From positions 8,904 to 72,903 of the forward strand of contig JBEKTW010000012.1 in assembly GCA_049515655.1 (NCBI GenBank): 64,000 bases of DNA. The letters are read 5' to 3'. Numbering within the stretch: position 1 is the first letter of the stretch; every line of letters begins with the position of its first letter. Below, in pieces: positions 35,170 through 56,509 of this stretch. The position numbers and the translations under genes are program-made. The notes beneath the pieces were generated by a model, which made no database searches, was not told the origin of the DNA, and saw only the letters and a program-made list of their open reading frames with translations. Source of the DNA: Bacteroidota bacterium. GTDB taxonomy: Bacteria; Bacteroidota; Ignavibacteria; UBA10030; SZUA-254.

Positions 35170-35604
35170 TTACTTGCCGATATCCTCATTCCATAGCGCG
35201 GGATGTTCTTTGATGAAATGCTCCATCATCTTCACGCATTCATCCAAATCAAGGTCGATGACTTCCACCCCGTGTTCACGCATGAAGTCGCGCGAGCCGG
35301 AAAAGGTTCTCGATTCGCCGACGACAACTTTTCGGATATTGAATTGAACCACCGCCCCGCCGCACAGGTAACAGGGCATCAAGGTCGAATAAAGGGTTGT
35401 GTTTCGGTAGTCTCCTACCCGGCCGGCGTTGACGAGGCAATCGATTTCCGCGTGCAACATCGTATTTTTTTCCTGCACTCGTTTGTTGTGCCCGCGTCCG
35501 ATGATTGTCCCATCCCGAACAAGCACAGAGCCGATAGGAATCCCACCTTCGGAGAGTCCCTTTTTTGCCTCCTTTATCGCTTCAGACATGACCTTATCCA
35601 TCAT
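35170..35604 (-). CDS. CDA-fold zinc deaminase (yeast-type cytosine deaminase / guanine-deaminase-like)
   Basis: HAE...PCxxC zinc motif (HAEIDCLVNAG...TLMPCYLCGGAV). Overall architecture and length (144 aa) match FCY1-type cytosine deaminase and B. subtilis GuaD. Confidence 0.8.
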   Translation of the reverse strand: MMDKVMSEAIKEAKKGLSEGGIPIGSVLVRDGTIIGRGHNKRVQEKNTMLHAEIDCLVNAGRVGDYRNTTLYSTLMPCYLCGGAVVQFNIRKVVVGESRTFSGSRDFMREHGVEVIDLDLDECVKMMEHFIKEHPALWNEDIGK

Positions 35605-35633
35605 AGATCTCTCTTGACTCCCTCAAGAATTAT

Positions 35634-35675
35634 CAATTGCTAACAACCAATTGACAATTGTCGATTAGCAGTTGG
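35634..35675. promoter_or_regulatory. dyad-symmetric element between the deaminase and ThrC-like genes
   Basis: caattgctaa...ttagcagttg is an inverted repeat (9 of 10 bases match) enclosing two CAATTG palindromes. Confidence 0.25.
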
Positions 35676-35710
35676 CCATTCACCATTACCTTGAGATGAT
35701 CAAGCTCGTC

Positions 35711-36943
35711 TCAGGTGAATTTCAGCCGCCTGACTGCCTCGAGCGTCGGCTCGATCACCGTGCCTGCACCCGCAACTTTCATCGCGCTTGCGATATCTTT
35801 CAAGCCGTTGCCGGTCAGCACGCACACGACTGTCTCATCCGATTTGACGAGACCGCCTTTGACTGCCTTTTTTAATCCCGCGTACGCGGCCGAGGCCGCA
35901 GGTTCGGAGAAAATCGCTTCGCCGCGCGCGAGTTCCGGAATCGCCGCGAGAATCTCATCGTCGCTCACTGTAAGGTATGCCCCCCCGGTTTCGCGCACGG
36001 CACGCACAGCACGCACACCGTCGCGCGGCATATCCGCGCTGATAGAATCCGCAACGGTTTGCGCATTGACGGCAGTGATCTTTTCTGTTCCGGCTTTCCA
36101 CGCGTTGTAACAGGCGGCCGAGCCTTCCGCTTGAATGCCCATGAGTTTCGGCATCCTGTCAATCCAGCCCAGGGCGAGCAAATCACGCAAGCCCTTCCAC
36201 AAACCGCTGATGATATTACCGTCGCCGACCGAAACGAAAATGGAGTCGGGCGTTTTCCAGCCTAGTTGTTCACACATCTCAATGGACGCGGTCTTCTTTC
36301 CTTCCACCGTATACGGGTTGAATGCAGTATTGCGGCAATACCAGCCGAATTCTTTCGAGACCTCCAGGCACAGGTCAAAGGCCTGGTCGTACGTACCTTT
36401 GACAAGGATGATGCGCGCACCGAAAATCAGCAGTTGGGCAATTTTCGCCTTCGGGGCCGTCTGGGGGACAAAAATCACCGCGGGCATTTTCGCAGCAGCG
36501 GCGAGACCTGCGAGCGCGGCGCCCGCATTACCGGTGCTTGCGGTTGTGATGACTTCAACACCCAGCTCACGCGCCTTTGCTACAACGACTGCGCTCGCAC
36601 GGTCCTTAAACGACGCGGTCGGATTGCGACCGTCGTCCTTGAGATACAGATGGCGCAATCCCAATCGTGGACCAAGAGTCGTCGAACGATAGAGCGGCGT
36701 CCAACCGACGTGAATCGGCGGCGCGGATGTGCGTGCATCGTCGAGCGGCAGAAGCGCCGAGTATCGCCAGATGGAGTAGTCGCGCGAATCGGAGATCGCA
36801 CGCGGAGAAGTTGATTCGTTGATTCGTTTGTAATTGAAAATCGTATCGAGGATACCATCAGACCCATGGTTGGGACAAACATAACGCGTGGTCCGGGGGT
36901 CGTACTCCGAGCCACATAGGGTACATTTGAAATGATAGTTCAT
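35711..36943 (-). CDS. threonine-synthase-like PLP-dependent enzyme (fold type II) with N-terminal Zn-ribbon
   Basis: PLP-lysine motif PTASFKDRA. Glycine-rich loop TASTGNAGAALA. N-terminal C-x2-C...C-x-x-H ribbon (MNYHFKCTLCGSEY..YVCPNHG). Start moved to the internal ATG at 36943. Confidence 0.75.
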   Translation of the reverse strand: MNYHFKCTLCGSEYDPRTTRYVCPNHGSDGILDTIFNYKRINESTSPRAISDSRDYSIWRYSALLPLDDARTSAPPIHVGWTPLYRSTTLGPRLGLRHLYLKDDGRNPTASFKDRASAVVVAKARELGVEVITTASTGNAGAALAGLAAAAKMPAVIFVPQTAPKAKIAQLLIFGARIILVKGTYDQAFDLCLEVSKEFGWYCRNTAFNPYTVEGKKTASIEMCEQLGWKTPDSIFVSVGDGNIISGLWKGLRDLLALGWIDRMPKLMGIQAEGSAACYNAWKAGTEKITAVNAQTVADSISADMPRDGVRAVRAVRETGGAYLTVSDDEILAAIPELARGEAIFSEPAASAAYAGLKKAVKGGLVKSDETVVCVLTGNGLKDIASAMKVAGAGTVIEPTLEAVRRLKFT

Positions 36944-36968
36944 ATGGAGACAACCACCTTCGAGATCA

Positions 36969-37985
36969 TTACCGTGTGATGTGCGTTCCGGTTTCACCGC
37001 GCAAGGCGCGCCCGATGTTTTCGGGATTCGTGATTATCGCGTGCTTGCCGCCGGCTTCGAGGAACCAGATGATCGCTTCAATCTTGGGAGCCATAGAACC
37101 TCTGGCAAAATGCGTGCCTTCCGCAAGATACCGTTTCGCCTCTGCTAGCGTTATCTTATCGAGCCATTGCTGATTCGGTTTGCCAAAATTAATTGCCACT
37201 TTCTCGACCGCCGTCGCAATCAGAAATAAATCGGCTTTGACTTTACTCGCGAGAAGACTGCTTGCAAAGTCCTTGTCGATAACTGCCGCGGTGCCCCGAT
37301 ACTCGCCATCGCCGACATCAATAACCGGTATCCCGCCGCCGCCAACCGTGATGACAATGATGCCCTGGTTCAGAACGGCTTCGATGGTTGACAGCTCGAC
37401 GATTTCTGCGGGCATAGGTGACGGAACCACGCGCCGCCAGCCGCGACCCGCATCTTCGACGACGCTCCAGTCCATTTCAGTTTTACGCCGCATCGCTTCA
37501 GCTTGATCCATGAATCCGCCGATGGGCTTCGATGGATGCTGGAAAGCCGGGTCCTTTTGATCTACCAGCACCTGCGTGATAATCGTCGCACATTGTTTCT
37601 TAATACCGCGATGATACAACTCGTTCTGCAGCGCTTGCTGCAATTCGTACCCGATCGCGCCCTGCGTATCCGCGCCGCATACATCAAGAGGAACTTCGTG
37701 CATTCCTTCGACTTTGGCGGCTATTTCGGAGCGGCGCAGGATGAAACCGACCTGCGGTCCATTGCCATGCCCGATTGCAACATCCCAACGTTGCTCGATC
37801 ATATCGGCGACATGATGTGCAGTTTCGCGTAATGCGCTTTCCTGATCTTCGACCGACTGGTGCTTTGTATCTTTGATGAGCGAGTTGCCGCCAATGGCGA
37901 TCACCGCGAGTTTGCGTTTGGGAACGCCGGGCCTTCTCCTGACAATTTTCCTCACCCTCTTCATTGTCTTCTTTTTCTTTGCCAT
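36969..37985 (-). CDS. arcC: carbamate kinase with a Lys/Arg-rich N-terminal extension
   Basis: CK core (KLAVIAIGGNSL..., VAIGHGNGPQVG, VITVGGGGIPV, GSMAPKIEA) preceded by MAKKKKTMKRVRKIVRRRPGVPKR. The track's longer N-terminus (38054) translates a repeat array and is rejected. Confidence 0.85.
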   Translation of the reverse strand: MAKKKKTMKRVRKIVRRRPGVPKRKLAVIAIGGNSLIKDTKHQSVEDQESALRETAHHVADMIEQRWDVAIGHGNGPQVGFILRRSEIAAKVEGMHEVPLDVCGADTQGAIGYELQQALQNELYHRGIKKQCATIITQVLVDQKDPAFQHPSKPIGGFMDQAEAMRRKTEMDWSVVEDAGRGWRRVVPSPMPAEIVELSTIEAVLNQGIIVITVGGGGIPVIDVGDGEYRGTAAVIDKDFASSLLASKVKADLFLIATAVEKVAINFGKPNQQWLDKITLAEAKRYLAEGTHFARGSMAPKIEAIIWFLEAGGKHAIITNPENIGRALRGETGTHITR

Positions 37986-38034
37986 GATTATTGTCCTTTT
38001 TTTGCCTTCGATAACCAGGTAACTACTCAACCAA

Positions 38035-38098
38035 TCAACGATCCAACTACCCAACTATTCAACTACTCAACGATCCAACCACTCAACTATTCAACTAT
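38035..38098. repeat. 32-bp tandem direct repeat x2 (tcaacgatccaactacccaactattcaactac)
   Basis: Two adjacent units differ at 3 positions. Same CAACTA-type 8-mer family as the arrays around the 39.1-39.8 kb cassette. Confidence 0.6.
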
Positions 38099-38106
38099 CG
38101 CACTAT

Positions 38107-39087
38107 TTAACCCATCGTCAATGCCATCGCCGCTTTCTGGGCGTGCATCCGATTTTCAGCTTCATCGTACACAACCGAGTTGGGTCCATCCATTACGCCG
38201 TCGGTCACTTCGATGTTGCGGTCGGCGGGAAGCGGATGCATGTAAATTGCATCGGGTTTTGCCAGCTTTAGCCGTCGCTCGTCCATAATCCACGACGAGT
38301 ATTTGCCGATGATTTTTGCGCCTTCTTTTTCGTCCGCCGTGTGGACCATCGCGCCCCACGACTTAGCGTAGACGACGTCGGCGCCCTTCATCGCGGCATC
38401 CATATCGTTAACCACCTCGAAGCCTGCGCCAAATTTCTTCGCTTGCTCACGCGCTTGATCCATGATCTCCGGCATCAGTTTAAATTCCGGAGGATGCGCA
38501 AGGACGACATCCATTCCAAAGCGCGGCATTTGCAGGATGAGTGATTGCGGTACCGACATCGGTTTCTGGTACGAGGAGGCGTATGCCCATGACACGACGA
38601 TCTTCTTGCGGCGCAGATCGCGTCCCTTCTTTTCGACAATCGTCATCAGGTCGGCGAGTATCTGGTACGGGTGATAGACGTCGCACTGCATATTCAGGAC
38701 CGGCACCCGCGAGTGTTTTGCAACTTCATTGATGTATTTGTTGCCGACGCCCCAGTCCACATGGCGGATGGCGATGCCGTCGAAATACCGGCCAAAAATT
38801 TCTCCGATTTCCTTCGGCGTGTCGCCGTGCGCAATCTGCGTCGACCGCGACTCGATGAATGCCGCGTGCCCGCCGAGTTGTGCCATCCCTGCTTCAAAGG
38901 AACCGCGCGTACGCGTGCTGGAGAAAAAGAATAGCATGGCGAGGACTTTATCGCGCAGCACTGCCTGCGATTCATTCAACGCGCGTTTGCGTTTTAAATC
39001 AAAAGCAACGTCGAGGACAGTTTCAACTTCTTCTTTGCTGAAATCGAGATCGCCGATTAAATCACGGCCATGTAGGTATGTTTGCAT
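38107..39087 (-). CDS. transcarbamylase (ATCase/OTCase superfamily), substrate unknown (YgeW-context paralog 1)
   Basis: STRTR carbamoyl-phosphate motif (FFFSSTRTRGSFEAG), HPYQ and HPLP motifs. 326 aa. Adjacent to carbamate kinase. Confidence 0.8.
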   Translation of the reverse strand: MQTYLHGRDLIGDLDFSKEEVETVLDVAFDLKRKRALNESQAVLRDKVLAMLFFFSSTRTRGSFEAGMAQLGGHAAFIESRSTQIAHGDTPKEIGEIFGRYFDGIAIRHVDWGVGNKYINEVAKHSRVPVLNMQCDVYHPYQILADLMTIVEKKGRDLRRKKIVVSWAYASSYQKPMSVPQSLILQMPRFGMDVVLAHPPEFKLMPEIMDQAREQAKKFGAGFEVVNDMDAAMKGADVVYAKSWGAMVHTADEKEGAKIIGKYSSWIMDERRLKLAKPDAIYMHPLPADRNIEVTDGVMDGPNSVVYDEAENRMHAQKAAMALTMG

Positions 39088-39102
39088 GGGTTCTTCTTTC
39101 GT

Positions 39103-39174
39103 TTGATAGTTCGATAGTTAAATAGTTCAATAGTTAGATAGTTGGATAGTTCAATAGTTCGATAGTTGGATCGT
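39103..39174. repeat. 8-bp-period tandem array (NNATAGTT) of about 9-11 units
   Basis: tgatagtt cgatagtt aaatagtt caatagtt agatagtt ggatagtt caatagtt cgatagtt ... It continues degenerately into the 3' end of the adjacent four-helix-bundle gene. Confidence 0.7.
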
Positions 39175-39597
39175 TCAGTCGTTTGGTGGTTTCTTCGTTG
39201 GATCGTCGGAGCGTTGTTTGTTCGATGCTGAGCCGTGTTCGCGAAGATACGCGATGAATGCATTCATGAGTTGTTTCGCTTCAGTTGCCAAATTGTAAAC
39301 GGCATCCATTTGTTCTTGCGTGACGTACTTGCGATCAAGCGCGAGGTTCAATTCAGACTGTACTTCGCTGGCTGAGCGGCGCGCAATCTTTAGAAACCGG
39401 ATGAATTCCGGATTATAGCCAGAATCGAAGCCCTCTGCTATATTGTGCATCACTGATCCTGCCGCCGCCTGAATCTGATCCCGTAGCCTAAAGTCTTTCG
39501 CAAATCGTGTTCCTTCAGTGAGATCATAGATCGCGTTTGCCAATTTCCGCGCCTTATGCCAACACTCTAGATCTTCAAAGTGTCTGATTGTCCCCAT
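39175..39597 (-). CDS. four-helix-bundle protein (23S rRNA intervening-sequence protein family, TIGR02436/PF05635-like), copy 1
   Basis: MGTIRHFEDLECWHKARKLANAIYDL...RDQIQAAAGSVMHNIAEG...FLKIARRSASEVQSELNLA matches the family consensus. The gene is AT-richer than its flanks. The track start at 39612 is a TTG. Confidence 0.8.
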   Translation of the reverse strand: MGTIRHFEDLECWHKARKLANAIYDLTEGTRFAKDFRLRDQIQAAAGSVMHNIAEGFDSGYNPEFIRFLKIARRSASEVQSELNLALDRKYVTQEQMDAVYNLATEAKQLMNAFIAYLREHGSASNKQRSDDPTKKPPND

Positions 39598-39770
39598 AAA
39601 AATCCTCCCCAACTGTCGAACAATTGAACGACCAAACGATCCAACGATTCAACAACCGAACAATCCAACTACCCAACTACTTAACTACGCAACCACACAA
39701 CTGTACGTTATTCAACGCCCGAACGATCTAACGACCCAACTATTTAACTACTCAACTACGTAACTGTAAG
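39598..39770. repeat. 8-bp-period array (NAACNANN / CAACTAYN), about 20 units, inverted relative to the 39103-39174 array
   Basis: gaacgacc aaacgatc caacgatt caacaacc ... caactacc caactact taactacg. The reverse complement of 39103-39174 aligns with it (shared ccaaacga, gaacgatccaac, caactat). Confidence 0.65.
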
Positions 39771-40751
39771 TTATTCAACAGCACCCAAAACGAGCGAGAT
39801 CAACCCCATTTTCAGGACGACGCCGTAGAATGCTTCCTGCCAGTAGCGCGCCCAGCGGGTAATGTCGACGTCCGGAGGAATCTCATCCATGCGTGGAAGC
39901 GAGTGGAGTAATATCATATCACTCTTTGCCTTGCTCATCAATAGCTCGCGCGTGATCTTGAAATTCGCCGGCGTGAGCGGTCGATCCTTCGTGGCTTCCT
40001 GTCGCGACTGCGAATAATCGGCCTGGATCACCGGCTCGACCAGAATCACATCGGCGTTCGCGATCGCCTGCTCGACGTGCTCCGCTTCGCTAAAGTTAAG
40101 TCCGTACTTCTTGAAATCCGCCTTGTATTCTTCCGGCATTCGCATGTCGGGCGAGTTTGGGAAAAGCGCATTCGGGGCCGGGCCGACGAAAGTGATGGGA
40201 CAATCGAATTGTGTAAGCGCATATCCGAGCGAGTGCATCGTGCGCATTCGCATGTCCCCAACGGCAAGCCAGCGCAGACCGTCAATGCGTCCGCGTTCGC
40301 GGAGGACCGTATAGAGGTCGGTGAGAATCTGGGTCGGGTGTTCGCCCCAGCCGTCACCGCCGTTGATGATCGGTACAGACGACCATTTCGCGGCCTCGTG
40401 CGGCGCCCCTTTCTGAAAATGGCGCATTGCAATCACGTCACCGTAGAACTCGAGCATCTTCACGGTGTCTTTGATGCTCTCCTGATAGTAATCGCCGGCG
40501 CGCGTCATTTTGGCGTCGGCAAAACCAGTAACGTGTCCGCCGAGGCGGTGCATGGCGGCTTCGTGGGAAAGACGCGTGCGCGTGCTGGGCTGATAGAACG
40601 CAGTCACGAGCGTCTTACCCTTGAGCATATCACTGTTCTGGCGATTGCGGGCGATCGGCTCCAGACGTTCCGCAATTTCAAACACGCGGAGGAACTCGCT
40701 TCGTTCAAATTCTTTAAGCGACAGAATGTCGCGACCGATGAAACTACGCAT
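39771..40751 (-). CDS. transcarbamylase (ATCase/OTCase superfamily), paralog 2
   Basis: STRTR motif (FYQPSTRTRLSHEAA), HPTQ, and an HSLP variant of the HPLP/HCLP motif. 326 aa. Confidence 0.8.
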   Translation of the reverse strand: MRSFIGRDILSLKEFERSEFLRVFEIAERLEPIARNRQNSDMLKGKTLVTAFYQPSTRTRLSHEAAMHRLGGHVTGFADAKMTRAGDYYQESIKDTVKMLEFYGDVIAMRHFQKGAPHEAAKWSSVPIINGGDGWGEHPTQILTDLYTVLRERGRIDGLRWLAVGDMRMRTMHSLGYALTQFDCPITFVGPAPNALFPNSPDMRMPEEYKADFKKYGLNFSEAEHVEQAIANADVILVEPVIQADYSQSRQEATKDRPLTPANFKITRELLMSKAKSDMILLHSLPRMDEIPPDVDITRWARYWQEAFYGVVLKMGLISLVLGAVE

Positions 40752-40831
40752 TGTGAAATTCTCCTTTTGTTTTGATGATTACCATTTTCAAACACTCTAC
40801 TCAGGCTCTTGGCTGTTAGCCCTTGGATTAC

Positions 40832-41383
40832 TTACACAATTTCCGACAACAATTCCTTCCTTGGCTGCGGGATAACGACCTTATTGACGAGAAGTCCTTT
40901 CTCCGCAACGATCGCCGCACCCGCGTCGACTGCCGATTGGACGGCGGCGACTTCGCCCGTCAGCGTGAGAAAGGCCTTTCCCCCCAGCGCCATGGCAAGC
41001 CGGATTTCGATCAATTGCACGCGCGCGGCCTTGACGGCGGCGTCGGCGGCTTCGATGAGCGCTGCCACGGAAAATGACTCCACAATCCCCAATGCTTCGA
41101 GCAGGTCGACTTTACTCGTGCCGCCGATTGCGGGAAAAACCGCGGCGTGCACATTCGGGATGACGAACGTGTCAATCACCGAACCCTGTGCAGCGACGCA
41201 TCCCGCTTCGACACTCGAGGTCACTGCGGCGACATCTCCCCCGACAAGCACCATGTACTTGCCCGAGCAGATTGTCCGCGAAAGGATGATTTCCACTTCC
41301 GCTGCTTTGAGCATTGCATCGGCGGCCTGGTAACCCGCCGCAATGCTCGTGAGTTCGATGAGGCCGATGGAGGTCTTAGTCAT
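40832..41383 (-). CDS. pduT: tandem BMC-domain shell protein, PduT-like (BMC-T with the single conserved pore cysteine)
   Basis: Two BMC domains (IGLIELTSIAAGYQAADAMLKAAEVEIIL...GGDVAAVTSSVEAG and LGIVESFSVAALIEAADAAVKAARVQLIEI...TGEVAAVQSAVDAG). The TICSGK motif corresponds to the [4Fe-4S]-ligating Cys of PduT. 183 aa. Confidence 0.85.
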   Translation of the reverse strand: MTKTSIGLIELTSIAAGYQAADAMLKAAEVEIILSRTICSGKYMVLVGGDVAAVTSSVEAGCVAAQGSVIDTFVIPNVHAAVFPAIGGTSKVDLLEALGIVESFSVAALIEAADAAVKAARVQLIEIRLAMALGGKAFLTLTGEVAAVQSAVDAGAAIVAEKGLLVNKVVIPQPRKELLSEIV

Positions 41384-41453
41384 AAAAACGTTCCATGATT
41401 GACGATGGATGATTGATGTCGGCCTTTAGCCCTTGGCTTCTGGCCTTTGGCAT
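41384..41453. repeat. low-complexity repeat (gatgattga units plus ggcctttagcccttggcttctggcctttggc)
   Basis: The reverse complement of 41811-41847 is about 85% identical to 41421-41451. The two flank four-helix-bundle gene copy 2 as inverted repeats. Confidence 0.6.
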
Positions 41454-41810
41454 TTAACTCTTAGAGATTTTCGATATCAGGGCGTTCGTCATCTTTTGCT
41501 CTGACGTCAGTAATCCTGCAACTTTTTCCACTTTCTCGGCTGGGACAAGACAGAGCTCTTGAAGAATCTGTATTTGAGTCTCAAGTTCAAACGCAGAGCC
41601 CATTGATAGCTCCAAGAATCTTTTGAATTCAATCTCACTATTTCTGCTACAGCCTTCTGCGATATTGGACGGAATTGAAACTGCGGCCCTGCACATTTGA
41701 GCCTTCAATCCGTACTGTTCTTCTTTCGGAAGTAATTTCGCAAGATCATACACTTGCTTCACAATCTCAATTCCATCCCTCCAAATAGTCAATTTTCTGA
41801 AGTCTCTCAT
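41454..41810 (-). CDS. four-helix-bundle protein (23S rRNA IVS protein family), copy 2
   Basis: MRDFRKLTIWRDGIEIVKQVYDLAKLLPKEEQYGLKAQMCRAAVSIPSNIAEGCSRNS..FKRFLELSMGSAFELETQIQIL is a textbook family match. About 43% GC. Confidence 0.85.
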   Translation of the reverse strand: MRDFRKLTIWRDGIEIVKQVYDLAKLLPKEEQYGLKAQMCRAAVSIPSNIAEGCSRNSEIEFKRFLELSMGSAFELETQIQILQELCLVPAEKVEKVAGLLTSEQKMTNALISKISKS

Positions 41811-41847
41811 CTTGCCTCCCAAAAGCCAAGAGCCAATGGCTAATAGC
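41811..41847. repeat. inverted partner of repeat 41421-41451 (ccaaaagccaagagccaatggctaatagc)
   Basis: Contains the 15-mer ccaatggctaatagc, whose exact reverse complement gctattagccattgg occurs in the 45438-45543 repeat. Confidence 0.55.
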
Positions 41848-43192: not shown

Positions 43193-43248
43193 AGATGAAG
43201 ATTCAATTCAGAGGTTAAAATAAGAAACAATGCCGGAAGTTCCAAGAA

Positions 43249-46869: not shown

Positions 46870-46873
46870 CGAT

Positions 46874-49372: not shown

Positions 49373-49608
49373 CTGATCACCCTCTTTCTTTTGATCACGT
49401 GGAGTCTTCAATTACTCGACCTGAATTTCGATCTGCCGCTGGGAGTCATCGAGAGTTTGAATGGCTCTTGCGATCTGATCGTGTCCTGTCCAACGGCACA
49501 GATTACTGCTAATTGCGGTGTGCATATCGTTTCCCGTGTTTGTGAAGTGCGAGCGTAAGCGAACATTTGGGCGAGGGGATCAAACCACAAACACCGTGTT
49601 AGGCGAGG

Positions 49609-50010
49609 TCATTTGCTCTGCTCAATGTCATCTAAAAAATCCAAAAGATGATCCCGCACAACAACAAATGAAGGACCCCCTCCAAATTCAACCCCTATCG
49701 CCGCTGCCTCCAACACCTCATCCCTTGTAGCCCCAGCCAAAATCGCATTGTTTGCATGGTTGGCAAGGCAAGGGATACATCTTGTAGCTACCGCAGCCGT
49801 GACGGCCATTAGCTCTTTTTGTTTTCTATCTAAAGCACCATGCTTGTAGTAGTGTTTTACCAATTCATTGAAACCATTGTAAAGGTTGGGTGCCTCCTTT
49901 TCCAAACGCTCTCTGTTGGCTTTTCTCTTTTTCAAAATATCTTTCACATTATGCATGGATTTACCTTCTATTTTATCATTCTGGGCCATTACTGCCTTAC
50001 ACTTTACCAT
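49609..50010 (-). CDS. carboxymuconolactone-decarboxylase/AhpD-like family protein (AT-rich insertion)
   Basis: AhpD-like core with CxxC-type motif (AAVATRCIPCLANHAN). About 43% GC versus about 58% for neighbours. Confidence 0.7.
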   Translation of the reverse strand: MVKCKAVMAQNDKIEGKSMHNVKDILKKRKANRERLEKEAPNLYNGFNELVKHYYKHGALDRKQKELMAVTAAVATRCIPCLANHANNAILAGATRDEVLEAAAIGVEFGGGPSFVVVRDHLLDFLDDIEQSK

Positions 50011-51202
50011 TCAATGTCGCGACGAACGCTGCGTAAAACGCGGCTGCTCGGCTGAGCTGCTCGATTTGACACGCTTCGTTCGGGGCGTGCGCATACAGTT
50101 CATTCCCCGGACCGAGCAGGAAACACGGGATACCGTGCATTCCGGCAATCGCAGTTGCGTTGCTGCTAAACGTCCACATGTCGACGTGAGGATCTTTACC
50201 GAACACTCCAGCGTACACTTCGACGGCGCTCTTGAGAAACGGAGAGTTTGCGTCCAGCGACCACGTCGGATAGTATTTTTCGGTTGGATACACCTTCCCG
50301 GTATATGCAGCGTCCTCGAAAATGAGCACGCTAACCTTCGCATCCTCGTAACCTGCGCGTCTGGCTGCTTCGTACACTTCAGCCACGGTGGTTTCTTTCG
50401 ATTCGTCCTGGGTCAACCGCCGGTCGAGACGGATGCTCGCGCCGTCCGGCACGGCGCAGATTGATGGAGACATGGAGCCGGCTTCAGTGACTGTGATCGA
50501 CCCCTTTCCCAAGAACGGATCGCTCCGCAGCCGCTCATTAAGCCTTTCGATTTCCAGCGCAATGCGCGCGATTTTATAGATGGCATTATCGCCGCGCTCG
50601 GGCGCGGAGCTGTGGCAGCTTCGTCCTTTCACTTCAACGCGCATCTCCATCCGGCCGCGATGACCGCGGTAGATGTTCATGTTCGTCGGCTCCGTAATCA
50701 CCACGAGCTCGGGCCGAAGGTGATCTTCCCTGATGAGGTGCTGCCAGCAGAGTCCATCGCAATCTTCTTCCATCACCGTGCCGGTGAAGTAAAGAGTGAA
50801 CGCGTCATTCAGATTCAGTTCTTTGATGAGCCTGGCCGCGGACAGCATCGCCGCCAGCCCGCCTTTCTGGTCGACAGTTCCGCGTCCCCACACCTTGCCG
50901 TCTGCCACCTTCGGGTCGAATGGGTCGAAGCTCCACTGCCCCCGGTCGCCTGCCTTCACGGTATCAACGTGTCCATCGAAGGCAATAGTTCTTGTTCCAC
51001 TGCCGATGCGTCCGATGATGCTCCCGAGTCCGTCAATCCTGATTTCGTCAAAGCCCACCTTTTCCATCTCTCGTCGGACAACCTGGACCGCCTCTTTCTC
51101 TTTCGACGAGAAGGATGGTGTACGAACGAGATCCATCAGAATCCGGACGGTGTCGTTTTCGATTTCCTTCGCTCGATCGTAAATGGCCTGGTATAAATTC
51201 AT
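49997..51202 (-). CDS. M20-family metallopeptidase/amidohydrolase (YgeY-like)
   Basis: M20 motifs (AFDGHVDTV; GRGTVDQKGG; TGTVMEEDC). Start at ATG 51202 (MNLYQAIYDRAKE); the track extension was rejected. Confidence 0.85.
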   Translation of the reverse strand: MNLYQAIYDRAKEIENDTVRILMDLVRTPSFSSKEKEAVQVVRREMEKVGFDEIRIDGLGSIIGRIGSGTRTIAFDGHVDTVKAGDRGQWSFDPFDPKVADGKVWGRGTVDQKGGLAAMLSAARLIKELNLNDAFTLYFTGTVMEEDCDGLCWQHLIREDHLRPELVVITEPTNMNIYRGHRGRMEMRVEVKGRSCHSSAPERGDNAIYKIARIALEIERLNERLRSDPFLGKGSITVTEAGSMSPSICAVPDGASIRLDRRLTQDESKETTVAEVYEAARRAGYEDAKVSVLIFEDAAYTGKVYPTEKYYPTWSLDANSPFLKSAVEVYAGVFGKDPHVDMWTFSSNATAIAGMHGIPCFLLGPGNELYAHAPNEACQIEQLSRAAAFYAAFVATLNGKV

Positions 51203-51225
51203 TCTTCCCGGGTTACTCTTCCCTC

Positions 51226-51687
51226 TCACTTTGCCGCATCCTTGATCGCTTCGACAATCTGAACGTAACCGGTGCACCGGCAGAGATTGCCCGAGATAGC
51301 GATTCGAATGTCCTCTTCGGAAGGATGGCCGTTCTTATCCAGCAATGCTTTCGCACTCATTAACATTCCCGGTGTACAGAAGCCGCAATGTGCTGCATCG
51401 TGGTCCATGAAAGATTCTTGAAGCGGGTCGAGTCTACCGTCCGAGATCAAACCCTCCACCGTCAGGATTTTTTTGCCGTCAATCTGAGGCGCGAGCACAA
51501 GACACGAATTCACGGCTGCTCCGTCGAGCAGAACCGTGCAGGCGCCGCATTCCCCCACTTCGCAACCGCATTTCGTTCCGGTAAATCCGAGTTCATCCCG
51601 CAGAATCTCAAGCAGCGTTCTGTCGGGGAAAATCGAGAGCACATATTCCCGACCGTTGATGGTTGTATGGATTGGGACTTGGGGCAT
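51226..51687 (-). CDS. molybdenum hydroxylase [2Fe-2S] small subunit (XdhC/CoxS-like)
   Basis: Plant-type ferredoxin motif CGCEVGECGACTV. Second cluster motif CGFCTPGMLMS...NLCRCTGY. Confidence 0.9.
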   Translation of the reverse strand: MPQVPIHTTINGREYVLSIFPDRTLLEILRDELGFTGTKCGCEVGECGACTVLLDGAAVNSCLVLAPQIDGKKILTVEGLISDGRLDPLQESFMDHDAAHCGFCTPGMLMSAKALLDKNGHPSEEDIRIAISGNLCRCTGYVQIVEAIKDAAK

Positions 51688-51887
51688 CAACTTGAAGAAT
51701 TGGAATGATTGGAATGATTCCAGAGATTATTCCTTCCCTTTTCAAATTTGCGAAGGTATTTCATATTGTACTCAAATCCTTCGGCGATATTGCTGGAAAT
51801 CGACATCGCCGTGTATATGTCGACCGCAACCTGCATCGCTTTCCGCCAAACTTCTAAGTCTTCAATCTTTCCAATCTTCCTAATCAC
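51687..51887 (-). pseudogene. decayed four-helix-bundle (IVS-protein family) gene remnant, copy 3, exactly filling the FAD-subunit / 2Fe-2S gap
   Basis: 66 aa: KIEDLEVWRKAMQVAVDIYT...SISSNIAEGFEY retains the family N-terminus and the SNIAEG motif but has lost the middle and the C-terminal helices. Flanked by inverted repeats gaagaattggaatgattggaatga (51693-51716) and tcaatctttccaatcttcc (51856-51880). Confidence 0.45.
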
Positions 51888-52741
51888 AATCTACACCCCT
51901 CCAGCGCCCGCCTGACCAAAACACCAATGACCGGTTCTTTGTATTCGGTTGACCAGCGTCTGCCGGTTTCCGAAATCATCAACTCCGAGACCTTCTGCCC
52001 CGCGGCTGCGAACAGTTTTTCCGAAGGTTTTTCCCCTATCAGCATTTTTTCCGCCTCATCGGCTCTTCTCCACTTCGAAAATGCAGCTCCGGGAGCAATA
52101 CGGGCGTCGACGATTTTCCCCTGTTCATTCTGTTCAATCACGGCGGCCACGCTCAATCGCGCGATGGAGAGCGCGTTCCGACGACCGAGCTTAATGAAGG
52201 CACTCCGGGCTTTTTCAGAAAGTTTCTGGAATCGGATTTCCGTCAGGAGTTCGTCTGGCCGGGCGTTTGTTACATACGGCCTCACAATCAATTCATCAAT
52301 TCCCATTTGCCGGCTCCCGCGCTTCGATTTCAGCGTGACACGGGCGCCAAGGGCAATAAGCGGGGGTACGGTATCGGCACAGACGGCGGCGTTCATGATG
52401 TTGCCGCCGATCGTGCCGCGATTTCTGATCTGCGGGGAACCGATGAGGGAAGCGGCAGCTGCAAGTAATGGCGCGTACTGATGGAGGATGGAGGATTGGA
52501 GCAACAGCGTGTGTGTCGCGAGGGGTTTGATGCGGACAGACCCGTTCTCCAGATTGATCGTGCCAAACTCATCAAGGAATGAGATATCAATGACCGCTTT
52601 CGGCGGCTTGCCATCGGGCCGACGGAGCTCCAGGAGCACGTCCGTGCCGCCGGCAAGGATACGCGCATCAGGACCATATTCAGCGAGCACTGAACACGTT
52701 TCGTCGATTGAACCGGTCCGTATGTAATCGAATGCCCTCAT
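51884..52741 (-). CDS. molybdenum hydroxylase FAD-binding subunit (XdhB/CoxM/YgfM-like)
   Basis: ILAGGTDVLLELR FAD-binding signature and a CO-dehydrogenase-flavoprotein-like fold. ATGA overlap with the Mo subunit. Confidence 0.85.
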   Translation of the reverse strand: MRAFDYIRTGSIDETCSVLAEYGPDARILAGGTDVLLELRRPDGKPPKAVIDISFLDEFGTINLENGSVRIKPLATHTLLLQSSILHQYAPLLAAAASLIGSPQIRNRGTIGGNIMNAAVCADTVPPLIALGARVTLKSKRGSRQMGIDELIVRPYVTNARPDELLTEIRFQKLSEKARSAFIKLGRRNALSIARLSVAAVIEQNEQGKIVDARIAPGAAFSKWRRADEAEKMLIGEKPSEKLFAAAGQKVSELMISETGRRWSTEYKEPVIGVLVRRALEGCRL

Positions 52742-55143
52742 CTTTTCTTTGAGCTTCGTTTCCTACCCGGTGGCTTCTTTCTTGGCCGCAACGGACGCTG
52801 AGGTTTCTGTCTTGTTTTACTGCTGTCAAGATTGAACTCGTCCTTCTTCACCGACCCGCGTTCACCCTTCCTCGTGAGCTTATGACCGAGGAGGACTCTC
52901 TCAAGGTTCGCGGGTAACTCGTCTATCCGTTTGCCCGTTGCGTTGTAGATTGCATTGACGATCGCCGGCGCGGCAAGTTCGTTCGCCGGTTCACCGATCG
53001 ATTTCGCGCCAAACGGTCCCGCCGCATCCTCATTCTCTATGACGATCGGCGTTATCTTTGGAACGTCCATCGACGTAGGAATCAGGTACTCATCGAAGTT
53101 CAGTTGCTTGGGAATTCCACCTTCAATCTCGAATTCTTCCAGCAGTCCGTAACCGAGTCCCATGGCAACCCCGCCGTAGAACTGGCCGAGCACTGTCGAC
53201 CGATTGATCGCTTTGCCGACGTCATGAGCGGAAACAACATTGAGAACATCCACTTTACCAGTCTCCGTATCGACCTCGACTTCCGCAACGTTTGTCCCGT
53301 AGACGAAGGTGAAGTACGCTTCCCCGTGTCCGTCTTCTTCATGCCAGGTTGTTCGCGGCGACTTGTACCATCCGAAGCCGTACATCGGCTTGCCCTGGTT
53401 GAAACATGCAGCGGCAAGCTCGGAAAATGATGCGAGTCTCTGCGAGCTCTTTTTGTCGATGAGATAATTCCCGGCGAGGTCCAGATCCTGCGCATTGCGG
53501 CCGGTCATTTCCGCCCCGGCGCTTAGAAGAGTCGCGCGGACTATCTCCGCCGCATGCTTTGCTGCCGAACCGCCCATGATGGTTCCGCGGGATGCCACTG
53601 TCGGACCGGAATCCGGAACCCTGCTTGTGTTCGTGTTGAGGAACAGAATACGCTCCATCGAAATGCCGAGAACCTCAGCCGCGATCTGCGACATTTGCGT
53701 TTGCGCGCCCTGTCCCATGTCCGTTATGCCGGAAGAAACAATGACACTGCCGTCGGTCTGCACGGATACGATTGTCCCGGCGGCATCCGCTCCTTCCGCT
53801 CCGAGTGAAACACCGCGGTAGCTGCAGGCAAGACCGATTCCCCTGCGTTTCGGGGCTCTTGGAGCAGTCCGGTACTCCTTCCACTTCTTCAGGAAATCCG
53901 ACGCCTCCGCCGCTTTGGTCAGAGCTTCCTTAAGACTCACAATATGGTCCAGCTTTTGACCCGTGGCCGTCACGGCCCCGCGCTCAAATCCATTCTGAAG
54001 ACGGATCTCGAGCGGATTCTTGCCGACCCGCTCCCCGAGTTCATCCATCATCGATTCAATCGCGAAGTTCACCTGCGGTGAGCCGAAGCCGCGCATGGCG
54101 CCGGTGTAATTGTTGTTCGTGTAGACCGCGTACACATCGGTCTTGACATTCTCGCAGTAGTACGGCCCGGTTGCCTGAACAACGGACCGCCACGTCACGA
54201 ACGGACTCATGGAGGCGTACGCACCGCCGTCAGCGATGACGCGGGCTTCCATCGCCGTGATCGAGCCGCCGTTCTTCGCTCCCCACTTGTAGTACATCGT
54301 GTAGGGGTGGCGTTTATAACTTTCAAGCATCGACTCTTCACGGGAATTTACCATTTTCACCGGCTTCCCGGTCTTCAGGCACAGCAACGCCGCCCGGCAG
54401 CACATCGACGTCATCACCTCATCCTTGCCGCCGAAGGAGCCGCCGAGAGTCGCCTGGATGATCTGAACTCTATTCAGGTCGAGATTCAACGCGGCGGCGA
54501 CCGACCTCCGGCTCGAGAAGAGATTCTGCACCGAGCCGACAATTCTCACGCCGCCATGCTCGGCGGGTTCGGCCAGAACCGCCTCCGGCTCGATGTAGGA
54601 ATGTTCGACGAATTGTGTCTTGAATTTCTTCTCGATAACGAAATCCGCTTCGGCGAATCCCTTTCCGGTGTCGCCCTTGCGAACCTTGTGATGAACAAAA
54701 GTATTATCTTCCCCGTGGATCCTGGGAGCATCCGCGGTCATCGCAAGCTCCGGGTCGGAAACGACGGGCAGTTCTTCGTATTTCACTTCAATGAGAGTCA
54801 GCGCGCGGGCCGCGATCTTTTCACTTTTCGCCGCAACCAACGCAATGCCGTCGCCTAAATAACGAACTTTCTCCCGGGCGAGTATCGCCTGGTTCTTCAC
54901 GACGATTCCAAACGCTCTTTCGCCCGGAATGTCCTTTGCGGTGAGAATGGCCTCCACGCCCTCGAGCTTCTCGGCCTTCGAAACATCGACAGACAGGATC
55001 TTCGCGTGCGGATGCTTTGCACGAAGGACTTTCCCATACAGTTGGTGCCCGGCATTATAGTCAGCGGCAAATTTTGCTTTGCCGGTGACCTTTCCGAGAG
55101 CGTCCACTCTGCGTTCAGGTTTTCCGATGATCCTGTTTGCCAT
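52738..55143 (-). CDS. molybdopterin-binding large subunit of a xanthine-dehydrogenase-family hydroxylase (XdhA/XdhD-like) with a Lys/Arg-rich C-terminal tail
   Basis: 801 aa. Ald_Xan_dh_C N-terminal region (GKPERRVDALGKVTGKAKFAAD...) and Mo-cofactor domains. The last about 45 aa are ...RKGERGSVKKDEFNLDSSKTRQKPQRPLRPRKKPPGRKRSSKKR. Confidence 0.9.
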   Translation of the reverse strand: MANRIIGKPERRVDALGKVTGKAKFAADYNAGHQLYGKVLRAKHPHAKILSVDVSKAEKLEGVEAILTAKDIPGERAFGIVVKNQAILAREKVRYLGDGIALVAAKSEKIAARALTLIEVKYEELPVVSDPELAMTADAPRIHGEDNTFVHHKVRKGDTGKGFAEADFVIEKKFKTQFVEHSYIEPEAVLAEPAEHGGVRIVGSVQNLFSSRRSVAAALNLDLNRVQIIQATLGGSFGGKDEVMTSMCCRAALLCLKTGKPVKMVNSREESMLESYKRHPYTMYYKWGAKNGGSITAMEARVIADGGAYASMSPFVTWRSVVQATGPYYCENVKTDVYAVYTNNNYTGAMRGFGSPQVNFAIESMMDELGERVGKNPLEIRLQNGFERGAVTATGQKLDHIVSLKEALTKAAEASDFLKKWKEYRTAPRAPKRRGIGLACSYRGVSLGAEGADAAGTIVSVQTDGSVIVSSGITDMGQGAQTQMSQIAAEVLGISMERILFLNTNTSRVPDSGPTVASRGTIMGGSAAKHAAEIVRATLLSAGAEMTGRNAQDLDLAGNYLIDKKSSQRLASFSELAAACFNQGKPMYGFGWYKSPRTTWHEEDGHGEAYFTFVYGTNVAEVEVDTETGKVDVLNVVSAHDVGKAINRSTVLGQFYGGVAMGLGYGLLEEFEIEGGIPKQLNFDEYLIPTSMDVPKITPIVIENEDAAGPFGAKSIGEPANELAAPAIVNAIYNATGKRIDELPANLERVLLGHKLTRKGERGSVKKDEFNLDSSKTRQKPQRPLRPRKKPPGRKRSSKKR

Positions 55144-55177
55144 ACTTGTTATTCATTGATTTGCCGGGCGTCATGAA

Positions 55178-56509
55178 TCAGATTCTTGCCCACAGTTTCT
55201 TGGCAGCATTCCGGGCCTTTTCATAGATAGACGGCACATCCTGCCCGACGATCTCGCGACCCTGTACAACCCACTTCCCGCCTACCATCACCGATTCAAC
55301 CATCGACGACTGCATGCCGAAGAGGAAATGACCCGGAAGATTCGCCCCGTTCAGAGGACTAGGGGATTCATACTCCATCACAACCAGGTCTGCGACCGAA
55401 CCCTTTTCCAGCGTTCCGAACTTCTGTGAAAAAATCTCCGACACCATTTCCTGATTGCTTTGAAGAAAAGAAGTGATTGGCTTAGCGGATTGAGAAATCC
55501 CGGATATTCTCCCGCCTCGTGCTTCTTTCTTCTTGTCTCTTTCTTCTTGATTCCAGAAAAAACCAACCCTGGCCTCTTCCAGCATGTCGGCCGGAAAACC
55601 GTCGGTACCCAGGCAGGCGCGATCACCGAAAAGACGCAGCGGGGCATGTCCGACACGGTTGTTCATGTTCGACCTCGGGTTGTGCACCAACCAGCATCGC
55701 GATTCCCGGAGTTTCAAGAAATCCCGTACTCCCACGTGAATGCAATGCGCAAGAATCGATTTGTCTCTCAAGATCCCGCACTCCGAGAGACGGCCGACGA
55801 CACTGCACTCGTAGTTTTCCTCCGCGTCGACACTATCGCACGTGTCTTCAGCGACATGGATATGAACACCCATTTTATTTTCAGACGCCATATCGCCGCA
55901 CAGGCGGAGAGAATCATTGCTCAAGGTGAACGAGGCATGAGCTCCGACCATGCCGCGGAACCGGGGATGTTTCCTGTTCGCCCGAATAAAGCGTTCGTTT
56001 TCTTTCAGTCCCTGGTCGCGCTCTTTCTTGCCGCCCCTGTCCGTCACTTCATAACAAAGAACGCCGCGAAGCCCGGCTTCTTCCACGGCCTGTTTAATAA
56101 TGTCGAGTGAACCACCGATGGCACTGGGTGATGCATGGTGGTCCACGAGCGTCGTCGTGCCGCAGCGCGCAGCTTCAACGGCACCGACGAGCGCACTGTA
56201 ATATATCGACTCGTCGTCGAGAGCCCGGTCGAGTTTCCACCATACCTTTTGGAGAATTTCGAGAAAGTTCGCTGGCTGAACCTTCGGCCCCGGCATGCCG
56301 CGGGAGAGTGCGGAGTAAAGATGCGTGTGCGCGTTCACCAAACCGGGGAGAACGATCCTGCCTCTGAGGTCAAGTCTCTCCTCATCATGGACCTGGGGCA
56401 GGTGCTTCCCCCGTTCCGTGATGATTCCATTCCGAATGCGAAGGTCGGTCGCTTCGATTGAGGGAGGATTCAGGACAGCGCTTCTGGCGTTCTTTATGAG
56501 AAGGTTCAA
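55178..56509 (-). CDS. ssnA: SsnA-family amidohydrolase, paralog 2 (closest to E. coli SsnA)
   Basis: LPGLVNAHTHLYS, LQKVWWKLDRALDDESIYYSALVGAVEAARCGTTTLVDHHASPSAIGGSL and HNPRSNMNN line up block by block with SsnA. TTG start. Confidence 0.85.
   Translation of the reverse strand: MNLLIKNARSAVLNPPSIEATDLRIRNGIITERGKHLPQVHDEERLDLRGRIVLPGLVNAHTHLYSALSRGMPGPKVQPANFLEILQKVWWKLDRALDDESIYYSALVGAVEAARCGTTTLVDHHASPSAIGGSLDIIKQAVEEAGLRGVLCYEVTDRGGKKERDQGLKENERFIRANRKHPRFRGMVGAHASFTLSNDSLRLCGDMASENKMGVHIHVAEDTCDSVDAEENYECSVVGRLSECGILRDKSILAHCIHVGVRDFLKLRESRCWLVHNPRSNMNNRVGHAPLRLFGDRACLGTDGFPADMLEEARVGFFWNQEERDKKKEARGGRISGISQSAKPITSFLQSNQEMVSEIFSQKFGTLEKGSVADLVVMEYESPSPLNGANLPGHFLFGMQSSMVESVMVGGKWVVQGREIVGQDVPSIYEKARNAAKKLWARI

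Follow-up and report, generated by a model that had tools for sequence, protein, structure and literature searches.

A rearranged operon that probably encodes a variant of the reductive urate pathway in an uncultured Ignavibacteria-like bacterium

A 64,000-nucleotide (nt) stretch of a Bacteroidota bacterium assembly (GCA_049515655.1, contig JBEKTW010000012.1, positions 8,904 to 72,903 of the forward strand), here called the window, carries a long operon that resembles the gene clusters for anaerobic catabolism of purines and urate. Nineteen co-directional open reading frames (ORFs) on the minus strand fill positions 35170-56509, as seen in the ORF map and in Pfam and NCBIfam scans; an initial annotation had claimed this co-directional run, which is borne out with exactly this span. 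In order of transcription, the genes encode the amidohydrolase SsnA-2, the molybdenum (Mo), FAD and [2Fe-2S] subunits of a hydroxylase, a YgeY-family hydrolase, an AhpD/CMD-family protein, a PreT/PreA-type reductase, SsnA-1, a CoA_binding_2 protein, a pyridoxal phosphate (PLP) enzyme designated PLP-488, a PduS-like protein, IVP-2, a PduT-like protein, the transcarbamylase TC2, IVP-1, the transcarbamylase TC1, carbamate kinase (CK), a ThrC-like PLP enzyme and a deaminase of the cytidine deaminase (CDA) fold. The families that had been listed for 17 of these genes are essentially right, but the two 23S_rRNA_IVP / four-helix-bundle genes had been missed. Likewise, the junctions described as tiny or overlapping are so only in part (one overlaps by 4 nt), since the intergenic gaps lie between -4 and 254 nt, seven of them being longer than 100 nt (196, 197, 106, 254, 173, 121 and 106). 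Judged from its gene content, the operon is probably a variant of the reductive (2,8-dioxopurine) pathway of uric acid and purine catabolism in an uncultured Bacteroidota/Ignavibacteria-like anaerobe. The pathway is already known, and the operon of the window is a rearranged member with several different enzymes.

The canonical reductive urate route was solved in 2025 (Li et al., bioRxiv 10.1101/2025.05.19.654654; Liu et al., 10.1101/2025.04.24.650524). In this route, XdhD/YgfM or XdhAC reduces urate to 2,8-dioxopurine, which is dearomatised by YgfK or the PydA-like UacX, and SsnA opens the pyrimidine ring to give ureidomethyl-hydantoin, which HyuA converts to 2,3-diureidopropionate. YgeW (with YqeA, and coupled to ATP) and YgeY then remove both ureido groups, and YgeX turns 2,3-diaminopropionate into pyruvate. 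The same work demonstrated the coupling of YgfK with SsnA and showed ATP formation by YgeW and YqeA experimentally. The notion that the substrates of YgeW-type transcarbamylases and the order of steps are incompletely resolved is thus largely outdated, the pathway and the YgeW substrate having been published; a commentary (PMC12990295) names as remaining points which enzyme cleaves which ureido group and in what order, where the Mo enzyme obtains its electrons, and the stereochemistry.

The window was compared by direct BLASTP with proteins of the E. coli K-12 ygeV-xdhD/ssnA-type region and, by tblastn, with related genomic and metagenomic loci, which are labelled with L-numbers. In common with the E. 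coli cluster, the operon has members of the SsnA, YgeY and carbamate kinase families that reach equivalog level, together with a Mo/FAD/Fe-S hydroxylase, a flavin/Fe-S reductase encoded immediately before SsnA, and the logic of making ATP with a transcarbamylase and a carbamate kinase. It differs in lacking HyuA, YgeX, YgeW, YqeB/YqeC, MocA, YgeV and the permeases, and in having a Mo enzyme of a three-subunit, XdhABC-like clade rather than XdhD/YgfM, a reductase of the dihydropyrimidine dehydrogenase (DPD) type rather than YgfK, two SsnA proteins, two non-YgeW transcarbamylases and two different PLP enzymes, to which PduS/PduT, AhpD-like, CoA-binding and cytosine-deaminase-like genes are added. 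A second point of reference is the C. difficile variant, which uses UacX (a PydA-type reductase) and UacY (a D-aminoacylase-type hydrolase). There too, a PydA/DPD-family FMN reductase replaces YgfK, indicating that the pathway tolerates the replacement of modules. The reductase of the window, however, has a fused PreT-like FAD/NAD(P)H module, and the ureido group would be removed by phosphorolysis, not by UacY hydrolysis.

The initial assignment to the anaerobic purine/urate clusters of the ygeW-ygeY-yqeA-ygfK-ssnA-xdhD type is supported in kind, because both SsnA proteins, YgeY and the carbamate kinase pass NCBIfam equivalog cut-offs and because related loci carry true YgeW, UacT and 8-oxoguanine deaminase. 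SsnA-2, the first gene (55178-56509, 443 aa), scores 458.9 against NF005540 (cut-off 444) and 436 against TIGR03314, below its cut-off of 455.5, whereas SsnA-1 (45544-46869, 441 aa) passes both models (528.5 and 503, respectively). SsnA-2 is 39% and SsnA-1 34% identical to E. coli SsnA by BLASTP. Both belong to the SsnA family, as had been supposed, although "duplicated" is a misleading word for two proteins that are 37% identical to each other. In related Ignavibacteria-type clusters, orthologues of SsnA-2 (52-61% identity) adjoin the Mo enzyme. The YgeY-family M20 hydrolase (49997-51202, 401 aa) is 49% identical to E. coli YgeY and scores 515 against an NF009555 cut-off of 321.

The reductase (46874-49411; likely ATG at 49372, giving 832 aa) had been described as YgfK-like. 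It reaches only 142 of the 835 bits required by the YgfK model, and Pfam and NCBIfam instead reveal a fused PreT-like and PreA-like protein, which is the architecture of DPD: the N-terminal half is PreT-like (Fe-S/FAD/NAD(P)H; Fer4_20 and Pyr_redox_2) and the C-terminal half PreA-like (FMN with a tail of two [4Fe-4S] clusters; NCBIfam PreA, 196.6 bits over residues 445-836). The JGI gene call of 747 aa loses the Fer4_20 domain, and in related loci the reductase is split into PreT and PreA. Its stop codon lies 4 nt before the start of SsnA-1, an adjacency that mirrors the published YgfK-SsnA coupling, and by analogy the DPD-type reductase may be functionally comparable to YgfK and UacX as the 2025 authors describe them.

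The hydroxylase is encoded by three genes: a Mo-binding subunit of the xanthine dehydrogenase (XDH) family (52738-55143, 801 aa; Pfam Ald_Xan_dh_C, MoCoBD_1 and MoCoBD_2), an FAD-binding subunit that overlaps it by 4 nt (51884-52741, 285 aa; FAD_binding_5 and CO_deh_flav_C) and a [2Fe-2S] subunit (51226-51687, 153 aa; Fer2 and Fer2_2). By BLASTP, the FAD subunit is 31% identical to E. coli XdhB, closer than to YgfM, the [2Fe-2S] subunit is 46% identical to XdhC, and the three-subunit enzyme is nearer to XdhABC than to XdhD/YgfM. Compared with bovine xanthine oxidase, the equivalents of R880, F914 and the catalytic E1261 are kept, with Asp-Glu at E802 and Leu at F1009. A placement with carbon monoxide dehydrogenase or aldehyde oxidoreductases, which the initial annotation had named as a result that would count against it, does not hold; the catalytic Glu and the Arg880 equivalent are retained. 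Ten related loci contain a second Mo enzyme with the bovine-type motifs GGGFGGKET, TAFRGFGGPQ, FGISFT and KAVGEPP, that is, a canonical XDH; the in-operon clade never bears these four motifs and differs from E. coli XdhD as well as from canonical XDH. A pair of XDH and DOPDH is present in C. sporogenes and E. coli, and the two-Mo-enzyme pattern of the ten loci parallels this pair, making the enzyme of the window, by its gene context, a candidate urate reductase. The Mo subunit ends in a unique K/R/P-rich tail of about 50 aa (52738-52890, …KTRQKPQRPLRPRKKPPGRKRSSKKR); eight close homologues (74-81% identical) have no such tail and end in a short D/E-SCK motif.

The two transcarbamylases, both of 326 aa, had been taken for duplicates of a YgeW type. 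They are 28% identical and belong to different subfamilies, TC1 (38107-39087) being a short relative of YgeW and TC2 (39771-40751) a derivative of aspartate transcarbamylase (ATCase), and neither reaches the YgeW model (203 bits for TC1 and 37 for TC2, against 453). TC1 is 36% identical to E. coli YgeW and has in common with it the second-substrate motifs WAYxxSYxKPxSVPQ and KSW(G/A). It is without the three YgeW insertions, its C-terminus is like that of ornithine carbamoyltransferase (OTC), and the OTC motif DxxxSMG is lost. Nor does it qualify as an OTC, scoring 262 against 281 and having KSWGAM and HPLP instead of DxxxSMG and HCLP.

TC2 resembles PyrB in that it just reaches the NCBIfam cut-off (TIGR00670, 237.2 against 236.95) and keeps the carbamoyl-phosphate site. 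In its clade (six members under four phylum-level labels), all checked carbamoyl-phosphate residues are intact, and a comparison with E. coli PyrB finds STRTR (S52-R54-T55), R105, H134, Q137 and R167 kept. It differs from PyrB at the other substrate site and in being embedded in catabolic clusters across phyla. In six of six members the 80s loop is remodelled with K84 replaced by Tyr, R229 has become Pro, and HPLP has become HSLP. Of the aspartate-site positions (K84, R167, R229, Q231 and HPLP), R167 is kept, and with a TIGR00670 match that is only marginal, TC2 does not pass for an ATCase. In ATCase, as established from its structure, K84 and R229 contact the carboxylates of aspartate. Their loss, with R167 kept, would fit an alpha-N-carbamoyl acid without a beta-carboxylate, such as 2-ureido-3-(ureido/amino)propionate.

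Carbamate kinase (36969-37985, from an ATG at residue 24 of an ORF that extends to 38054) is 49% identical to E. coli YqeA by BLASTP and passes both NF009007 (427.6 against 266) and TIGR00746 (379 against 358). The initial proposal that the transcarbamylases and carbamate kinase yield ATP by substrate-level phosphorylation agrees with the experiments on YgeW and YqeA. The arginine deiminase and oxalurate routes likewise phosphorolyse a ureido group to carbamoyl phosphate, from which carbamate kinase makes ATP; here, the substrate would be a purine-derived diureido acid, and two unrelated transcarbamylases stand in a near-invariant TC2-TC1-CK triad. The kinase has a K/R-rich N-terminal extension of about 25 aa (37911-37985, e.g. 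MAKKKKTMKRVRKIVRRRPGVPKRK). A basic extension, conserved in composition and not in sequence, is also found in L010, L018 and L019 (two phylum labels), and the kinases of other cluster types are without it. In another cluster type (L014, L016, L021 and L026), the gene after the kinase encodes a relative of ATCase, with about 40% identity to E. coli PyrB, in which STRTR has become S(T/S/L)LT(R/L), R54 is Leu and the His of HPLP is lost; this protein may be a pseudo-enzyme or catalyse a different chemistry.

YgeX is not found in the window, and the initial annotation was right that a ThrC-like enzyme is present in the operon instead. This fold-type-II PLP enzyme (35711-36943, 410 aa) begins with a Cys-rich, Zn-ribbon-like segment and is 24% identical to YgeX over 203 aa by BLASTP. 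Its likeness to threonine synthase extends to a kept cofactor site and to just passing one NCBIfam model (NF006050, 307 against 303). It nevertheless belongs to a cluster-specific clade, encoded in catabolic clusters across phyla, that is without an Arg and an Asn of threonine synthase: 42 of 42 cluster-embedded homologues have Thr, Leu or Cys in place of the Arg of NPYRIEGQKT, and Ile, Val, Thr or Ser in place of the second Asn of GNAGN, both positions being intact in the Aquifex enzyme. These residues are presumably phosphate ligands of threonine synthase, as in the structure of the T. thermophilus enzyme.

PLP-488 (43249-44715, 488 aa) is a CysK/CBS-like enzyme of fold type II with N- and C-terminal extensions, below threshold for CysK (107 against 351 bits), and belongs to a highly conserved but uncurated family. 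Its Schiff-base Lys, Asn-loop, Gln, Gly-rich loop and H(K/R)I(Q/E)GIG motif are those of beta-replacement enzymes. An AlphaFold2 model from a 19-sequence alignment had a mean pLDDT of 50, too poor for a fold search, and was not used. Among the matches listed (for the ThrC-like protein, the best 25 of 42 families), neither PLP enzyme matches the model of diaminopropionate (DAP) ammonia-lyase at E <= 0.001. L048, on the other hand, carries a true DAP ammonia-lyase (305 against 276 bits) together with YgeW and PLP-488 and has no ThrC-like gene, which suggests that the ThrC-like enzyme substitutes for YgeX and that PLP-488 does something additional. A direct replacement of YgeX by PLP-488 was considered and is weakened by the same locus, where the true ammonia-lyase stands beside YgeW-PLP-488.

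A CoA-dependent C-C cleavage by PLP-488 and the CoA-binding protein (CoA_binding_2, 44970-45437, 155 aa, Pfam E = 1e-24) had also been hinted at. It finds no support and was rejected: the scans turned up this accessory gene in no related locus, with none beside a PLP-488 homologue in the roughly 110 loci covered by tblastn; it is not conserved with the cluster, and PLP-488 keeps the CysK/CBS beta-replacement motifs. A second, divergent paralogue of PLP-488 (42-46% identical) directly follows the ThrC-like gene in L094, L096, L107, L108 and L111, and a ThrC-like gene adjoins a PLP-488-like gene in Elusimicrobia (L069) and Bacteriovoracaceae (L083) as well. The two PLP families may work as a pair.

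The distribution of these enzymes was followed in two scans. A GTDB-wide scan with an alignment of PLP-488 finds it in at least 580 species at 63-80% identity, in phyla that include Bacteroidota/Ignavibacteria, Acidobacteriota, Verrucomicrobiota, Myxococcota, Elusimicrobiota and Cloacimonadota. Within 10 kb on either side of the 80 best loci, tblastn counts a ThrC-like gene in 41, a YgeW orthologue in 40, the Mo subunit in 40, SsnA in 39, YgeY in 38, a HyuA-like gene in 18 and a YgeX-like gene in 2. The YgeW orthologues are 58-68% identical to the E. coli protein over the full BLASTP alignment, and one that was checked scores 667 against the cut-off of 453; at 32 of 68 loci, YgeW lies directly upstream of PLP-488, its end less than 400 nt away. 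UacT, 56-57% identical to that of E. coli, is also encoded at some of the Acidobacteriota loci. The second scan used TC2 to collect metagenome loci, and in 30 of the 32 that are at least 9 kb long TC2, TC1 and CK are contiguous (inserted IVP genes aside); genes for a ThrC-like and a PLP-488-like protein usually come next. In several TC2 loci, a YgeY-family hydrolase (456 against 321), directly upstream, and an 8-oxoguanine deaminase equivalog (711 against 532) precede the triad.

From these family memberships, active-site substitutions and synteny counts we infer the following pathway. The three-subunit Mo/FAD/[2Fe-2S] hydroxylase would, given its gene context, reductively remove the 6-oxo group of urate to give 2,8-dioxopurine. 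By analogy with YgfK-SsnA, the fused DPD-type reductase would dearomatise this product and the adjacent SsnA-1 open its pyrimidine ring. A second cyclic-amide hydrolysis would yield 2,3-diureidopropionate, a step for which SsnA-2 is the sole candidate within the operon. TC1 and TC2, each perhaps with its own regiospecificity, would phosphorolyse the ureido groups, from which carbamate kinase would make ATP, potentially two per urate, with YgeY as an irreversible hydrolytic alternative for ureido removal. The non-YgeX PLP enzymes would turn 2,3-diaminopropionate into pyruvate and ammonia, the ThrC-like enzyme being the likelier ammonia-lyase and PLP-488 carrying out an additional beta-elimination or beta-replacement on C3 amino-acid intermediates. 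An electron-transfer module for the Mo enzyme or the reductase would be formed by the PduS-like flavoprotein and the [4Fe-4S] PduT-like protein.

Several observations weigh against this reading of the operon as one urate pathway. The Mo subunit reaches none of the NCBIfam equivalog cut-offs, and the PDB entry that it matches best (375 bits) is 4-hydroxybenzoyl-CoA reductase, a reductive dehydroxylase. HyuA, YgeX, YqeB, YqeC, MocA and a nucleobase (including urate) permease are all missing from the 64-kb window. For HyuA, whose absence had been remarked before and holds, tblastn with the E. coli protein matches only the N-terminus of SsnA-2 (65 aa, 37.7 bits); among the genes for a selenium cofactor, YqeB and YqeC were not found in the window and selD was not queried. 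Clusters with a single SsnA and no HyuA exist among the relatives, and the idea that SsnA-2 replaces HyuA is retained only as a weak one. YgeY and both transcarbamylases make three ureido-cleaving enzymes for two ureido groups, so a yield of two ATP is not compelled. In Elusimicrobiales, PLP-488 stands alone among housekeeping genes and may thus have a more general role.

Two further observations of this kind open on to other explanations, of which the first concerns the modular make-up of the operon. Elsewhere, three modules are found separately, namely SsnA-2 with the Mo/FAD/Fe-S genes, YgeY with the DPD-type reductase and SsnA-1, and PLP-488...TC2-TC1-CK-ThrC, and the operon looks like a mosaic of the three. 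In metagenome-assembled genomes (MAGs) of Terriglobia, PLP-488-TC2-TC1-CK-ThrC forms an isolated block surrounded by LpxC, GDH, UvrC and LpxD, with 84-94% protein identity to the window. A comparison of L018 and L019 with 35711-44715 of the window gives 77-94% for PLP-488, TC2, TC1, CK and the ThrC-like protein, between flanks of unrelated housekeeping genes, and such identity across phylum labels indicates either recent inter-phylum transfer of the module or mis-binning. The operon could then be a composite of independent modules and not one pathway, with TC2-TC1-CK-ThrC(-PLP) serving as an ATP module for another ureido compound, for example one derived from allantoate or an N-carbamoyl amino acid. 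The stand-alone Terriglobia block speaks for this, as do the different combinations of the three blocks in different phyla, the match of SsnA-1 and SsnA-2 each to the single SsnA of a different cluster type, and a GC content that is heterogeneous across the window. It is nevertheless unlikely, as the triad often lies directly beside YgeY-family, 8-oxoguanine deaminase, SsnA and YgfK-type genes, TC1 bears the substrate-site motifs of YgeW, and a purine core gives exactly two ureido groups, matching the two transcarbamylases; moreover, the stand-alone blocks may have their remaining genes elsewhere in the genome.

The second of these observations is that the deaminase encoded by the last gene, with the DPD-architecture reductase, fits pyrimidine catabolism too. 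This protein (35170-35604, 144 aa) had been described by its CDA fold, which is correct, and is more exactly a homologue of yeast-type (Fcy1-like) cytosine deaminase, with 123 bits against PDB 1UAQ in a full-length match that includes the C-terminal WxEDIG tail. An 80% identical deaminase occupies the same position in the closest relative, L094. An identity as a GuaD-type guanine deaminase was rejected, as the best matches are yeast cytosine deaminases and no GuaD- or NE0047-type structure is among the matches listed; candidate substrates are cytosine or a cytosine-like aminopurine such as isoguanine. The whole operon, or the DPD-SsnA-1-YgeY part with the deaminase, might accordingly degrade pyrimidines, from cytosine through uracil and dihydrouracil to N-carbamoyl-beta-alanine, with a transcarbamylase and carbamate kinase harvesting the ureido group. 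The true PreT-PreA (DPD) architecture of the reductase and the full-length likeness of the last gene to yeast cytosine deaminase would suit this, M20 enzymes include beta-ureidopropionases, and the published urate pathway has itself been likened to PydA/PydB. Yet the reductase remains far below the PreA model (196.6 against 335 bits), the equivalogs reached by both amidohydrolases and by the M20 hydrolase are those of SsnA and YgeY and not those of dihydropyrimidinase or beta-ureidopropionase, and uracil degradation has no role for a Mo hydroxylase, two transcarbamylases and two PLP enzymes acting on alpha-amino acids. UacT, YgeW and 8-oxoguanine deaminase occur in relatives, and the deaminase is conserved in the closest relatives only, all of which renders a pyrimidine pathway highly improbable.

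An electron module may be sought in the PduS/PduT pair. The PduS/RnfC-like protein (41840-43192, 450 aa; Pfam Complex1_51K, SLBB, Fer4_17 and RnfC_N) is a flavin oxidoreductase with two [4Fe-4S] clusters, and the PduT-like protein (40832-41383, 183 aa) has two bacterial microcompartment (BMC) domains, staying below TIGR02526 (122 against 250). Its Cys39, in the pore-loop motif LSRTICSGKY, is kept in all five contexts examined. Close PduT-like homologues number in the thousands, and in every inspected context (the window, L012, L090, L091, L092 and L094-L096) PduT comes directly after a PduS-like gene, the pair adjoins genes for a Mo hydroxylase or for purine enzymes, and further shell genes are lacking. 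Domain architectures, pore Cys and gene adjacency are those of PduS-PduT in the 1,2-propanediol microcompartment, from which the pair of the window differs in having no other shell genes or B12 enzyme and in its place beside XDH-family or purine genes. No earlier description of PduS/PduT linked with xanthine dehydrogenase was found in the literature searched.

The simplest reading, proposed here, is that PduS/PduT forms a soluble or scaffolded Fe-S electron module for the Mo enzyme or the reductase. Alternatively, PduT could be a true tile in the shell of a fragmented (FRAG-type) microcompartment, the remaining shell genes being located elsewhere in the genome; part of the purine pathway would then be enclosed, with PduS/PduT passing electrons across the shell. 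FRAG microcompartments, with shell genes spread over up to six loci and no known function, are reported from Ignavibacteriae and related phyla (PMC8217296), Firmicutes have been predicted to possess a microcompartment that serves anaerobic xanthine use by a different pathway (PMC6620236), PduT keeps its tandem BMC domains and pore Cys, and carbamate kinase and the Mo subunit have unusual terminal extensions. These extensions, however, are K/R-rich tails, unlike the amphipathic helices typical of encapsulation peptides. A scan of the larger ORFs, covering most of the 64 kb, showed no further shell gene, nor was BMC-H or BMC-P found within 20 kb in L090-L092, and in L090 the pair is accompanied by canonical XDH alone. 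Encapsulation therefore appears improbable.

The two genes that the initial annotation had missed are IVP-2 (41454-41810, 118 aa, Pfam E = 1e-32) and IVP-1 (39175-39597, 140 aa, E = 4e-32). Repeat search and RNA folding place IVP-1 between inverted arrays of a repeat with a period of 8 nt (39085-39780), with the unit (GTTnGATA)n; by pairing, the arrays form a stem of about 130 nt (minimum free energy -232, against -187 +/- 7 in shuffles; z = -6.6). IVP-2 lies within a stem of about 20 bp; when 41384-41845 is folded (z = -3.3), the terminal arms are paired. A third array occupies 38021-38099 in the spacer between TC1 and CK, so that TC1 itself is bracketed by complementary arrays. A like cassette, with the unit TAGTCGnG, lies between TC2 and TC1 in two independent metagenome loci (L133:10948-11476 and L114:11020-11958), and in other loci IVP genes lie between TC1 and CK. 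Read from sequence, these cassettes have the architecture of rRNA intervening sequences, but within an mRNA, and they may be both mobile cassettes and RNase III processing sites. Tandem repeats with periods of 7, 9, 12, 14 and 21 nt occur at 44762-44966, 23039-23110 and 42866-42909, the first filling the 254 nt that separate PLP-488 from the CoA-binding gene; intergenic repeats of this periodic kind seem to be characteristic of the genome. The remaining accessory gene encodes an AhpD/CMD-family protein with a CxxC motif (CIPC; 49609-49989, 126 aa, Pfam CMD E = 1e-16); it was found in no related locus covered by the tblastn scans and appears to be lineage-specific.

No convincing internal terminator was found in the operon (14 terminator-like sites, against 22 +/- 6 in shuffles). 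A sigma-70 promoter scan, a type ill suited to Bacteroidota promoters, gave counts no better than shuffles, and no riboswitch for purines, xanthine or the molybdenum cofactor came up when 33000-60000 was searched with Rfam at E <= 1. At its 3' end, the operon is convergent with an amino-acid permease gene (33293-34756, plus strand). A strong hairpin at 34872-34967, between the permease and deaminase genes, where Rfam gave only two chance matches to miRNA models, is probably a bidirectional terminator. On the 5' side, about 420 nt of non-coding DNA lie between the operon and the same-strand DUF2911 gene that precedes it (56931-58310), and the remainder of the window encodes type-IX-secretion C-terminal domains.

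The TC2-TC1-CK triad, the ThrC-derived enzyme, PLP-488 and the association of PduS/PduT with Mo hydroxylases are uncharacterised variants that recur across environmental phyla. Taken together they allow a tentative proposal, more doubtful than the assignment of the operon to the reductive pathway: environmental anaerobes (Ignavibacteria/Bacteroidota, Acidobacteriota, Verrucomicrobiota and others) might run a higher-yield urate pathway, in which TC2-TC1-CK would give two ATP per purine, the ThrC-derived enzyme and PLP-488 would replace YgeX and add a step absent in E. coli, and a shell-less PduS/PduT would be the electron partner of the Mo hydroxylase. These features bear on the points left by the commentary. 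Two transcarbamylases with contrasting sites, one ATCase-derived and of the alpha-N-carbamoyl type and the other of the YgeW type, offer a natural dissection of the question of ureido cleavage, PduS/PduT is a candidate Fe-S electron module for the question of the donor to the Mo enzyme, and the two non-YgeX PLP enzymes are a further such feature. The work that solved the pathway in 2025 concerned Proteobacteria and Firmicutes of the gut; Bacteroidota, Acidobacteriota and Verrucomicrobiota are not named in the published SsnA network, and the published MAG survey emphasises Bacillota and host-associated habitats. The relatives of the window operon would extend it to abundant phyla of soil, sediment and freshwater, a reach outside animal guts that matters for nitrogen and purine turnover, and the alternative enzymes of these loci, such as NAD(P)H-linked DPD-type reductases and possibly selenium-independent Mo enzymes, may be of use in engineering uricolytic probiotics.

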